Positions 33,175-35,974 of a stretch of DNA of 44,479 nucleotides are shown in pieces. Each line of letters starts with the position of its first letter. The stretch's first letter is position 1. Below the pieces are notes generated by a model. It had not been told where the DNA came from and searched no databases. It worked only from the letters and a program-made list of their open reading frames with translations. The position numbers and the translations under genes are program-made. The stretch lies in the IMG/VR virus record IMGVR_UViG_2526164662_000049; one strand, 5' to 3'. Source of the stretch: a virus (lineage: Duplodnaviria; Heunggongvirae; Uroviricota; Caudoviricetes).

Positions 33175-33921
33175 TTACTTCGCAATTCCTGGCTGACCAA
33201 CATTCGGACGCCAGCTCTCCCAGTTAAAATTCACCCATCGCCCGCCGTTCATGGTCATGCGATCCATAATCCGCTCGCCGAGCAATGTTTTCATGGCCTC
33301 ATAGTTCAGGTTTGTCAGCATCCCCACGCTGCGCATCGACGCTGTCCGGCGATCAACAATCTGGTGCAGCACCACCTGCTCGTTTTTCGTCTCGCGCTGA
33401 ATGCCAATTTCATCAAGAACCAGCAGATCCACTTCGCACAGCTCCCGCAAAAATTTTTCGCCTGACTGCCCGTCGTCATAGCTGGCGTGCAGGGCGCTCA
33501 TAACATCAGCCACGGTAACCACAATCACTGTCTGACCGTCTTTCAGCAGGCGATTCCCGATAGCTGCCGCTAAGTGATTCTTCCCGGTACCAGGTTTTCC
33601 GCTGAACGCAAAATTTGTACACCCGGTCATCAGTTCATCGGCGATGGATTTCGCCTGGCTTAACGCGTATCGCTGCCCTTCGTTCTGCACCTGGTAATTC
33701 GCAAACGAGCATTTGCGGTGCAACGGCTGGATGCCAGAGCGATTCAGGATTTTTTCCACCCGCAACTGACGATTCAGGCGGTTGATCTCCTCGCAACGTT
33801 TCTGGCCTTCAGCAAGTTGCCACTCGCGCCACTCCGCAACCGTTCTGAATGGGGCGGTTACATGTGGTGGGGTCAGTCTGCGGATACGCTCCAGAACGCC
33901 TCCTGTCGCAATATTTTTCAT
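33175..33921 (-). CDS. DnaC/IstB-like replication helicase loader (YdaV-like)
   Basis: 248 aa; Walker [16 protein letters not shown] and Walker B LLVLDEIG. Confidence 0.75.
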
Positions 33922-33927
33922 GGCCTG

Positions 33928-34716
33928 TTACCCCCTGAAGCCTGGCGGGATCGCACTGTCCGGCAACGAGACGGTGTTAACCTGTCGGAGCAACGTCTCA
34001 GGCCGAACACCTTTCGGCGCGAACAGGCCCTGGTATTCATTGGCGATACTGTGTCGAATCACCTGCTCAGGTGTAAAACCCTGCTGGCGGAATTTTTCCA
34101 GCTCCCGTATCGCCCCGTTAGCGCCCTGCTCCGTTCGAATCGGTTTTCGCAATGCCTGCCTGAACCGGACCCACTCATGCCAGAGTGTTTCCGGCAACCA
34201 ATCGGGCAGCTCAATAGCCTCCGGCTCAAATTTTTTAGACGCTCGTTTTTGGCGAGGGGGATTTAGGGGGAGATCAGTATTTATATCTTCCTCTTCCTCT
34301 TCCTCTGGTAACGCTTTTTGATCCATTTGTGTAACGCTGCCAGCGTTACCTTTTCGTTTCAGTTCGCGTATTTTTGTAACTCGCTCGTTTGTAACCGCCC
34401 GTTTTTTAGAGCTTTTCCCGTTATGACGTTCAAAGTTAGGTAGAGAAAGCCCACCGTCATTTTCGACCAGCCATCCAACCTGAATTAACGCATCAGCAAA
34501 ACCAGCCATAAAAGTGATGCGATCTATTGCACTTTTTGTAACGCCGCGAGCGTTACAATCTGCATTACCGTCTATCATTTGTTGATCCGCCCATGCCCAG
34601 AAGCGAATAACCTTCCCTAATGCGGCATCTGGATCAATATTCAGAATCTCAGCAAGCCTGAATATTTCCGGCTTATCCGGCGTAATAACCTCGAGCTTTA
34701 TCCAGTTTGAAGCCAT
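33928..34716 (-). CDS. replication initiator (O-like / YdaU-like) with acidic linker
   Basis: 262 aa; EEEEEE linker; gene contains 19 bp palindromic iterons; precedes DnaC-like gene. Confidence 0.7.
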   Translation of the reverse strand: MASNWIKLEVITPDKPEIFRLAEILNIDPDAALGKVIRFWAWADQQMIDGNADCNARGVTKSAIDRITFMAGFADALIQVGWLVENDGGLSLPNFERHNGKSSKKRAVTNERVTKIRELKRKGNAGSVTQMDQKALPEEEEEEDINTDLPLNPPRQKRASKKFEPEAIELPDWLPETLWHEWVRFRQALRKPIRTEQGANGAIRELEKFRQQGFTPEQVIRHSIANEYQGLFAPKGVRPETLLRQVNTVSLPDSAIPPGFRG

Positions 34717-34767
34717 TTGTTTTCACCTTGTAACGCTCGCAGCGTTACATTTAACTGATACCGAACA
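34331..34767. repeat. putative origin iterons: three 19 bp palindromes GTAACGC(N5)GCGTTAC
   Basis: copies at 34331-34349, 34548-34566, 34749-34767 with about 200 bp spacing, plus degenerate copy near 34377-34396. Confidence 0.45.
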
Positions 34768-34793
34768 AAACAATCCGGCACGATTAATTTCAA

Positions 34794-35216
34794 TCAATGC
34801 ACTACGACAGAATCGCCGGGCGACCCACCACCGCTGAAATGTGCTTTCCGGTAAACGGCCTGGACTGCATCATCATGCGCATCAATTGCCGTACTCAACG
34901 CTTCCTGCGCCGCTAGTAATGCACGGCGTTCCAGGGTATCGAAGATGCAGAGTCGGTGACGCAGCTCGCGCGGAAGAATTGCCAGAACCGCAGGGATCAG
35001 TTTCTGAATTTTTTCCCTTTGCGCTTTCGTTTCACCTTTCAACCAACGGTGATAGATATTCTGCTGATTGTTCCAGTCCTTGCCTGGTACAAGGGGCAAT
35101 TCGCCGCCCCCCTGGCGCAGATATTCTTCAGTAATTGCGTTAGCGACCCACGCCTGCCCTTTTTCGGCTGCCAGGGCTAACAACACTGATTCGATGTGCT
35201 CATGCCTGATTTTCAT
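34794..35216 (-). CDS. CII-like / YdaT-like regulator
   Basis: 140 aa ORF immediately downstream of cro-like gene, Rac-like arrangement. Confidence 0.55.
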   Translation of the reverse strand: MKIRHEHIESVLLALAAEKGQAWVANAITEEYLRQGGGELPLVPGKDWNNQQNIYHRWLKGETKAQREKIQKLIPAVLAILPRELRHRLCIFDTLERRALLAAQEALSTAIDAHDDAVQAVYRKAHFSGGGSPGDSVVVH

Positions 35217-35458
35217 GAATCAACCGCTCCTATGCTGTTTTCGCTATGCTTACCGTCTGGGGGGGGGAATACATCGTCAAGTCCACAATGAGCGCCAAGC
35301 CGATTAAGGGTAGAAACAATTTTTCTGCACTCCTCTAGTCCAGGGGTACGAAAATTTGCTTCGTAATTTGCCAGTCGGCTTTGTATCCACCCTAACTGAA
35401 CAGCAAGTTGTCTTTGAGACAGCCCAAGCTGTTTTCGATATGTTGAAATTTTGTTCAT
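35213..35458 (-). CDS. Cro-like HTH regulator (YdaS-like)
   Basis: 81 aa; HTH LGLSQRQLAVQLGWIQSRLANYE; divergent from repressor gene. Confidence 0.65.
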   Translation of the reverse strand: MNKISTYRKQLGLSQRQLAVQLGWIQSRLANYEANFRTPGLEECRKIVSTLNRLGAHCGLDDVFPPPDGKHSENSIGAVDS

Positions 35459-35554: not shown

Positions 35555-35974
35555 ATGGAAAAAGAAAACGAAAAAATTGCCGCTAGTAGGCTCAATGACA
35601 AAATTGCAATGCGTCTTAAAGAGCGCAGGCAGAAGCTTGGTTTATCTCAAGGAAAACTTGCTGAAATCTGCGGATGGACGCAATCGCGTATAGGTAACTA
35701 TGAGGCGGGCAGCAGAAATGTTGGAGTGCATGACGCTGTCGTATTGGGAAAGGCTCTTGGCATATCTCCTCCTGAGCTCCTCTTTGGAGAACAGGAATCT
35801 TCTGAATTGTGGTTAAATGAATCCCAACGAAAACTTCTTGAGTTGTTTAACCAGCTACCGGGCTCAGAACAACAACGAATGATTGAGCTATTTGAAGTCC
35901 GGCTAAAAGAAATCGATGAGTATGTAGAAAAATATTTGAGAGGCAGGCTTAAAGATAATCCCCCACCGGAGTAA
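35555..35974 (+). CDS. prophage repressor, DicA/RacR-type HTH (no S24 peptidase domain)
   Basis: 139 aa; HTH LGLSQGKLAEICGWTQSRIGNYE; followed by terminator. Confidence 0.75.
   Translation: MEKENEKIAASRLNDKIAMRLKERRQKLGLSQGKLAEICGWTQSRIGNYEAGSRNVGVHDAVVLGKALGISPPELLFGEQESSELWLNESQRKLLELFNQLPGSEQQRMIELFEVRLKEIDEYVEKYLRGRLKDNPPPE

Follow-up and report, generated by a model that had tools for sequence, protein, structure and literature searches.

Dispersed palindromes in and ahead of a prophage initiator gene as candidate sites for its own product within a putative replication origin

Why should a replication initiator gene carry, in its coding sequence and again just ahead of its start codon, perfect copies of a single palindrome set far apart from one another? 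The question is raised by a Rac-like prophage in the IMG/VR virus record IMGVR_UViG_2526164662_000049 (Caudoviricetes), a stretch of 44,479 nucleotides that is referred to here, at its full length, as the window. The palindromes, GTAACGC-N5-GCGTTAC, are probably duplex sites for dimers of the N-domain of the initiator itself, which is predicted to be winged-helix, and together they would form the prophage origin in and just upstream of the initiator gene. From the comparisons of sequence described below, this reading is given a probability of roughly two in three. The elements on which it turns are the following.

33928..34716, minus strand: replication initiator gene, 262 aa, matching phrog_2509; N-domain (residues ~11-95), linker (96-160), three-helix C-domain (176-225) and DnaT-like tail
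34730..34748, no strand: palindrome 1, GTAACGCTCGCAGCGTTAC, exact match; intergenic, 32-14 nt before the initiator ATG and directly 5' of the AAGGTGA ribosome-binding site
34562..34568, minus strand: degenerate direct half-site GTAATGC (6/7; plus strand GCATTAC), read from the sequence, 12 bp before palindrome 2; encodes G50-N51-A52
34538..34556, no strand: palindrome 2, GTAACGCCGCGAGCGTTAC, exact match; codons 54-60 (CNARGVT) of the initiator
34331..34349, no strand: palindrome 3, GTAACGCTGCCAGCGTTAC, exact match; codons 123-129 (GNAGSVT), in the disordered linker; proposed origin core site
34308..34314, minus strand: lone half-site GCGTTAC (plus strand GTAACGC), exact, 23 bp past the inner arm of palindrome 3 and abutting the homopurine tract; encodes A135-L136-P137
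34286..34306, minus (coding) strand: homopurine tract AGAGGAAGAGGAAGAGGAAGA, (GAGGAA)n, 21 nt, directly after the last half-site; encodes EEEEEED (the run being codons 138-143); proposed unwinding or helicase-entry element

Exact matching finds three perfect copies in the 44.5-kb window and no more, at 34331-34349, 34538-34556 and 34730-34748, the number given in a preliminary description of this DNA. The exact palindrome is absent from all 100 dinucleotide-preserving shuffles of the window (0 expected by chance), and no fourth copy was found anywhere in the window at up to three mismatches. The preliminary description also placed the sites correctly within and upstream of the initiator gene, two of them falling in codons 54-60 and 123-129 and one being intergenic. 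Its coordinate 34331 is correct, while 34548 should read 34538 and 34749 should read 34730, 34749 being the base immediately after the third copy. The additional degenerate copy that it listed corresponds to partial sites, namely the perfect lone half-site at 34308-34314 and the 6/7 half-site at 34562-34568. In gene orientation, the palindromes start at -32, +160 and +367 and the lone half-site at +402, with centre-to-centre distances of 207 and 192 bp between palindromes. The 7-mer half-site GTAACGC is itself enriched in the window (14 observed versus 4.7 expected), with 7 of the 14 occurrences confined to 34308-34748. No other repeat cluster able to serve as an origin was found in the replication module.

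The sites are also conserved well beyond this prophage. A species-representative scan, with one genome per species, gave 27 loci ranging from Enterobacterales to Planctomycetes and including assorted metagenome-assembled genomes (MAGs); 25 of these and the window make up the 26 sequences of the codon comparison. Arms occur at +148/160 and +337-412 in nearly all relatives, and the spacers are unconstrained. The upstream palindrome is found at -32 to -44 in most Enterobacterales relatives and is absent from planctomycete and other distant loci; among 61 unique Escherichia coli sequences all five of its spacer positions are polymorphic and its arms are invariant. Within the gene, the codons that spell the arms are nearly fixed: in palindrome 2, N55 is AAC in 24/25 sequences and V59 is GTT in 22/23, and in palindrome 3 the corresponding residues N124 and V128 are AAC in 20/21 and GTT in 19/20. 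The lone half-site behaves alike, with L136 encoded by TTA in 19/19 and P137 by CCA in 18/19, whereas leucine uses five to six codons at other conserved columns. Taken together, motif codons have a top-codon fraction of 0.87-1.0; for 50 other conserved columns, the median is 0.55 (Mann-Whitney p=2e-5). The residue preceding the Asn is Cys, Gly or Ser, mostly encoded by TGT, GGT or AGT, and that preceding the Val is mostly Ser (AGC) or Gly (GGC).

Many relatives carry, in addition, direct half-sites at a 12-bp (four-codon) period, for example 148> 160> 172< and 367> 379> 391> 403<. The degenerate half-site of the window belongs to the first of these series, as its position holds a perfect GTAACGC in most relatives to give the array 148> 160> 172<, and the G50 codon is GGT in 20/23 sequences. 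The extra half-sites are visible in the proteins as added “xNAx” units. This pattern of codon use indicates that the arms are DNA elements under strong purifying selection at the DNA level, and the conserved peptides “NAxSVT”, “ALP” and “EEEEEE/REEKRRE” appear to be dictated by the DNA rather than by protein function.

The palindromes and the initiator N-domain are found together even when the search is made without reference to protein. When IMG/VR was scanned, blind to protein, for DNA with two palindromes 187-217 bp apart, at least 120 loci were returned, and 80/80 of the loci kept encode the initiator N-domain (30-100% identity), with the sites at their canonical offsets. Departures from the motif are informative. 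Two planctomycete loci share a symmetric arm change, CTAACG...CGTTAG, in both copies, and one enterobacterial locus has a single degenerate variant, GTAATGC...GTATTAC. Distant family members, located in phages by tblastn, show different palindromes in a like geometry, mostly two per gene. Thus, GTCCGC-N7-GCGGAC lies at +65 and +344-365 in epsilon15, BUCT711, RPZH3 and phiPSA1, with only the +344 copy seen in a Cobetia phage; GTAGACG-N6-CGTCTAC lies at +153 and +369 in Raharianne; and a Vibrio phage has one copy of GTCACA-N7-TGTGAC at +358. In the 39.7-kb genome of epsilon15, the sole two copies of GTCCGC-N7-GCGGAC are both inside the initiator gene, each flanked by further half-sites.

A change of N-domain brings a change of repeat as well. 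The K-12-type YdaU protein has the C-terminal half in common with the window initiator (86% nucleotide identity, with the junction in the linker), and its N-domain is DUF1376. GTAACGC was not found in the K-12-type ydaU gene; in the copy from E. coli 8FA (L241, gene 1527-2384, minus strand), TGTTCAAAC repeats occur instead at +147, +391 and +425 in direct and at +449 in inverted orientation. The genes upstream of the initiator differ by locus (YdaT, a C5-methylase, KilAC, a metallophosphoesterase or small unknown open reading frames), and the only constant neighbour is a downstream helicase or loader, which may be DnaC-like, P-like or DnaB, or absent. Because neighbouring genes vary in this way, the initiator is the sole constant candidate reader of the sites. 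On this comparative evidence, the sites belong specifically to this initiator family, and a different N-domain brings different sites.

The homopurine tract shows the same signature of constraint on DNA. It falls in the most purine-rich 24-nt segment of the gene, and the equivalent segment is 83-100% purine in 34/34 sequences (33 relatives and the window). In other clades, a near-invariant AGAGAAGAGAAGAGAAGAGAAGA stands at the tract position and encodes REEKRRE(D/E) within an all-purine run beginning AGAGAAGAG; there is essentially no difference in this sequence between phages of Salmonella, Klebsiella, Xanthomonas, Ralstonia and Pseudomonas, and MAGs. The arginine codons of the tract are AGA in 32/32 cases, compared with AGR in 44/223 elsewhere in the same genes (Fisher p=5e-20), several of which have 58-65% GC. 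Among E. coli prophages the tract is polymorphic in length by 6 nt, such that the number of Glu residues varies. The acidic EEEEEE linker pointed out in the preliminary description is present, but it is better understood as the shadow that a conserved homopurine tract of the DNA, which gives REEKRRE elsewhere, casts on the protein. Because the charge of the peptide changes while the DNA stays homopurine, the acidic linker is most simply a consequence of the DNA element. The formation of H-DNA from a mirror repeat was considered as a common property of the tract and dropped, in that the (AGAGA)n version is mirror-symmetric and the (GAGGAA)n version, by inspection, is not.

Approximately 15 nt past the tract, at 34256-34270, is a C5-N5-C5 element, GGGGGATTTAGGGGG (coding strand CCCCCTAAATCCCCC, peptide PLNPP). 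Many relatives have it too, in some cases with GGGGG after it to make an inverted repeat, and it is also present in K-12-type ydaU near the start of the homology between both initiator types. It may be an element of the DNA or mark a recombination junction.

How such an origin might work can be proposed from this arrangement. The recognition unit would be the 7-bp half-site GTAACGC, two of which placed head-to-head and 12 bp apart would make one dimer site, with the further half-sites of relatives added in 12-bp (four-codon) steps. The linker cluster (34331-34349 with 34308-34314), abutting the homopurine tract of ~21-24 nt, would be the origin core, at which bound initiator may open or capture the tract and its C-terminal domain may recruit host DnaB together with the DnaC-like loader encoded by the adjacent gene. 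The palindromes at 34538-34556 and 34730-34748 would be auxiliary initiator sites, which may cooperate by DNA looping or wrapping, and the upstream site may add autoregulation in enterics. The binding of the initiator, the start of replication at this place and the roles of individual sites are what we infer from the comparisons. The suggestion that an origin is embedded in the initiator gene, made in the preliminary description, gains comparative support in that the arms are under DNA-level selection, are tied exclusively to the N-domain and switch motif when the N-domain diverges or is swapped; origin function itself is put forward here as probable.

Several observations weigh against this proposal. 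Because the sites lie inside the gene of their proposed binder, part of the co-occurrence is accounted for by physical linkage, and there are few motif classes. No classical AT-rich unwinding element was found, as 30-bp segments reach at most 67% AT, with several places tied; nor was a DnaA box. The distances between sites range over 189-300 bp, always in multiples of 3, and have no conserved helical phase; a precise looping geometry is not supported for this reason, and strict helical phasing between the sites was dropped from the proposal on account of that range. A promoter scan found no consensus sigma-70 promoter beside the upstream palindrome, which leaves autoregulation a speculation. 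Hairpin folding, at -10 to -12 kcal/mol, is possible for each palindrome as well. In the literature searched, no report of binding, footprinting, marker-frequency or ori-rescue experiments was found for this initiator family.

Some of these points would be accommodated if the palindromes were operators only, bound by the initiator or by another phage regulator for autorepression or as a roadblock of the replication operon, with the origin elsewhere. The upstream copy is set 14-32 nt before the ATG and against the ribosome-binding site, the inverted repeats bound by Rep dimers in the iteron plasmids pSC101, P1 and F are typically autoregulatory, and the want of a clear AT-rich unwinding element fits as well. 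Nevertheless, planctomycete and many other relatives dispense with the upstream copy and keep both intragenic ones, the linker copy always precedes a homopurine tract that is conserved as DNA, no promoter consensus was found near the upstream site, and the module offers no alternative repeat cluster as the origin. A purely regulatory role is accordingly considered unlikely. Less likely still is that the palindromes act as RNA or single-stranded DNA (ssDNA) hairpins, whether as a terminator or attenuator, an mRNA stabiliser, or a primosome-assembly or single-strand initiation (ssi) signal. The stems of 7-10 bp are stable enough (-10 to -12 kcal/mol, z -3.3 to -4.1), the 34331 copy with the CTTTTCGTTT that follows on the plus strand (34331-34359) scores as terminator-like in antisense to the initiator gene, and the C-terminal region of the initiator is DnaT-like, or “primosomal”. 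Selection on structure alone, however, would allow independent compensatory changes in each copy, whereas one arm sequence is used per genome from E. coli to Planctomycetes; and the lone half-sites and direct arrays (148> 160> 172<; 367> 379> 391> 403<) cannot pair, yet are equally codon-frozen. No relevant Rfam match was obtained in 33800-35300 at E<=1.

That the reader is some other factor, such as the CII-like YdaT, a Cro- or CI-type repressor, a DUF1627 or DUF977 protein or a protein of the host, is judged about as improbable as the hairpins. Several helix-turn-helix (HTH) proteins are indeed encoded nearby, and YdaT binds inverted repeats as a tetramer able to bridge two sites (PMC11879457). 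The known YdaT box, TTGATT-N6-AATCAA, is nevertheless unrelated to GTAACGC (PMC9986795, PMC11879457), and YdaT was rejected as the binder of the palindromes on this ground. More generally, the neighbours are wholly different among loci that keep the sites (methylase, KilAC, metallophosphoesterase or none), and a host factor is made unlikely by the different motif classes of phages that share hosts. The least credible alternative is that a repeated motif of the protein, NAxSVT, is required for its function and gives rise to the DNA palindrome as a by-product. It could draw on the invariance or near-invariance of N55, A56 and V128 in the protein alignment and on the shared reading frame of the two intragenic copies, but these would leave the frozen synonymous positions (AAC, GTT, TTA, CCA and AGC) unexplained, and it was rejected on this codon evidence. 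Where the flanking residues vary, the codons used mostly preserve the DNA motif; one of the identical copies lies between genes; both intragenic copies encode stretches predicted to be loop or disordered; and the palindromes of other clades encode unrelated peptides (ASALKAD, SASDADK).

If the palindromes are indeed sites for the initiator in an origin, a more specific division of labour may be entertained, although it is rather doubtful. In this two-part device, the N-domain would read the variable duplex iterons and the DnaT-like C-domain would engage the near-invariant (AGAGA)n/(GAGGAA)n tract as ssDNA or as an R-loop with the purine-rich initiator mRNA, the whole making a phage-encoded, PriA-independent primosome starter similar in logic to a DnaA box with DnaA-trios. 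Were this so, the constancy of the tract across phages of Salmonella, Xanthomonas, Ralstonia and Pseudomonas and across uncultured lineages, with the iterons changing, would point to a conserved reader, either the C-domain or DnaB/DnaC.

An origin embedded in an initiator gene is a known kind of arrangement, of which dispersed sites beside an all-purine tract would be a variant. The ori of lambda, situated in the middle of the O gene, combines an easily opened tract with 19-bp imperfect inverted-repeat iterons bound by O dimers, and extra iterons add 13 aa to the O protein in the Shiga toxin (Stx) phages P27 and 933W (PMC7466680). The perfect palindromes of the window are consequently not unusual in kind, contrary to the preliminary description, and direct half-site arrays spaced at 12 bp are found among the relatives as well. 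As in lambda and the lambdoid phages, dyad sites of 19 bp lie in the coding sequence of the initiator, in the part encoding an interdomain segment (in the window, the linker of the AlphaFold2 model), with a strand-asymmetric tract adjoining and a helicase-delivery gene directly downstream; as in the O proteins of Stx phages, added sites lengthen the protein, here by 4-aa “xNAx” units. The differences are nonetheless considerable. The N-domain is not Phage_rep_O. The sites are dispersed over distances of 190-300 bp, singly or in small clusters, compared with the four to six packed into ~100-150 bp in lambda-type origins. This wide spacing, which the preliminary description rightly singled out as unusual, is conserved across the family. 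No tight cluster of at least four iterons was found in the window, which has single palindromes 192 and 207 bp apart with one lone and one degenerate half-site. At the position equivalent to that of the AT-rich tract of lambda, the window has a homopurine one (GAR/AGA repeats); the partner protein is DnaC-like (DnaB, P-like or absent in relatives), and the C-domain is DnaT-like.

Iteron plasmids such as pSC101, P1, F and R6K provide a second comparison. Their winged-helix Rep proteins read one and the same half-site whether it is arrayed directly or inverted; the inverted repeats stand beside the start of the rep gene, and separate clusters, which could interact by looping, flank or span that gene. 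The sites of the window differ in lying in coding sequence, and they belong to a prophage with a lytic-type replication module, for which handcuffing or copy-number control is not expected. The basal unwinding unit of bacterial oriC, a DnaA box adjoining DnaA-trio repeats of period 3, resembles the proposed core in layout alone, with a duplex initiator box beside a short-period purine-rich repeat possibly engaged as ssDNA. The proteins are unrelated, the window initiator being without an AAA+ module, and the repeat period is 5-6 nt instead of 3.

The nearest comparison is with K-12 Rac YdaU and oriJ. Both systems share the gene order repressor, Cro-like, YdaT, initiator, YdaV, and each has a single repeat near +147 as well as a cluster in the linker region. 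The window differs in that its N-domain is not DUF1376 and its repeats are not TGTTCAAAC; because N-domain and repeats differ, the published work on oriJ concerns a different origin-recognition module. The TGTTCAAAC repeats of K-12-type ydaU are themselves candidate iterons of the classical Rac oriJ, in a layout that mirrors that of the window.

The literature searched contains only passing mentions of Rac oriJ, nothing on origins for YdaU, and nothing relevant for the motif strings or for DnaT with iterons; nor were the sites of this family, their dispersed bi- or tripartite layout, the motif classes or the invariant homopurine tract found described there. Should the proposed origin be real, the family would gain a defined origin with simple, predictable rules, namely half-sites of 7 bp, steps of 12 bp, two or three clusters lying apart and a homopurine tract, and in hundreds of prophages the sequence would suffice for origin annotation. 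The joint movement of the N-domain and its sites, as a cassette that can be exchanged, would also have an explanation, and natural specificity classes would be at hand for the study of initiator-site co-evolution. The case is a clear example of a cis element shaping protein sequence.

The initiator itself belongs to the PHROG 2509/9474 family, which is marked by a winged-helix N-domain with “WIKxExxTPDKPE”. In profile searches it matches phrog_2509, “replication initiation protein”, over its full length (E=2.5e-89, residues 1-262) and phrog_9474 over residues 4-130 (E=2.2e-26), and hhalign aligns it to the epsilon15 replication protein with a probability of 99.1. The “O-like” profile phrog_678 matches solely over residues 77-236. 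No Pfam family was matched at E<=0.01, hence homology to Phage_rep_O (lambda O) was not found, and Rep_3/RepA homology was likewise not detectable in the Pfam search. The AlphaFold2 model comprises a helical N-domain with a β-hairpin (~11-95), a disordered segment (96-160) with predicted local distance difference test (pLDDT) values <50, and a three-helix C-domain (176-225); the codons of palindrome 2 fall in a loop of the N-domain (residues 49-60) that is modelled with low confidence, and the fold of this domain is predicted to be winged-helix. The tail (244-262) weakly resembles DnaT 161-179 (NCBIfam E=0.006; PDB DnaT chains E~0.2), and the DnaT DNA-binding domain PF17948, matched by the epsilon15 homologue at E=1.4e-12, is one of the Pfam families that the window protein does not match. 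The full gene is found in 679/5426 complete E. coli genomes, where it is annotated as “hypothetical protein”, and family members occur in phages such as epsilon15, SPN1S, TL-2011b and Xanthomonas CP2. In E. coli LWY24 the region is present at 100% identity. The remainder of the replication module of this Rac-like prophage is made up as follows.

33175..33921, minus strand: DnaC-like helicase loader gene (YdaV type), directly downstream of the initiator gene; NCBIfam PRK12377 E=1.7e-153 and DnaC E=1e-90; Pfam IstB_IS21
34794-35216, minus strand: YdaT/CII-like gene
35213-35458, minus strand: Cro-like HTH gene
35555-35974, plus strand: repressor gene
DUF1627 and DUF977 genes, members of the same module

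A near-match to the YdaT box, TTGATTGAAATTAATCGT, occurs on the minus strand at 34780-34797, where it overlaps the end of the YdaT-like gene; its left arm is perfect, its spacer is 6 nt and its right arm is AATCGT (4/6). It is almost invariant in the 61 E. coli variants and, lying between ydaT and the initiator gene, may be a site for YdaT. The terminator-like site at 34331-34359 could stop antisense transcription, or may reflect Lys/Arg-rich codons upstream of palindrome 3.

Among the relatives, many proteins from E. coli and Salmonella (P0011-P0058; for example P0034, 376 aa) have an insertion of ~114 aa, without a Pfam match, right after the EEEEEEDINTDL segment and beside the proposed origin core. 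In Shigella flexneri SFBU1023 (L082), the initiator frame stops after 210 codons rather than 262, possibly in a decaying prophage; all three palindromes are intact there, as they are in E. coli ECMA0423 (L083). Lastly, the initiator gene begins within a gene for a C-5 cytosine methyltransferase in epsilon15 (L109, 842-2011) and in Vibrio phage 1.211.A (L113, 1004-2008), and BUCT711 has a DNA cytosine methyltransferase gene further downstream, such that methylases recur beside initiator sites that contain CG.

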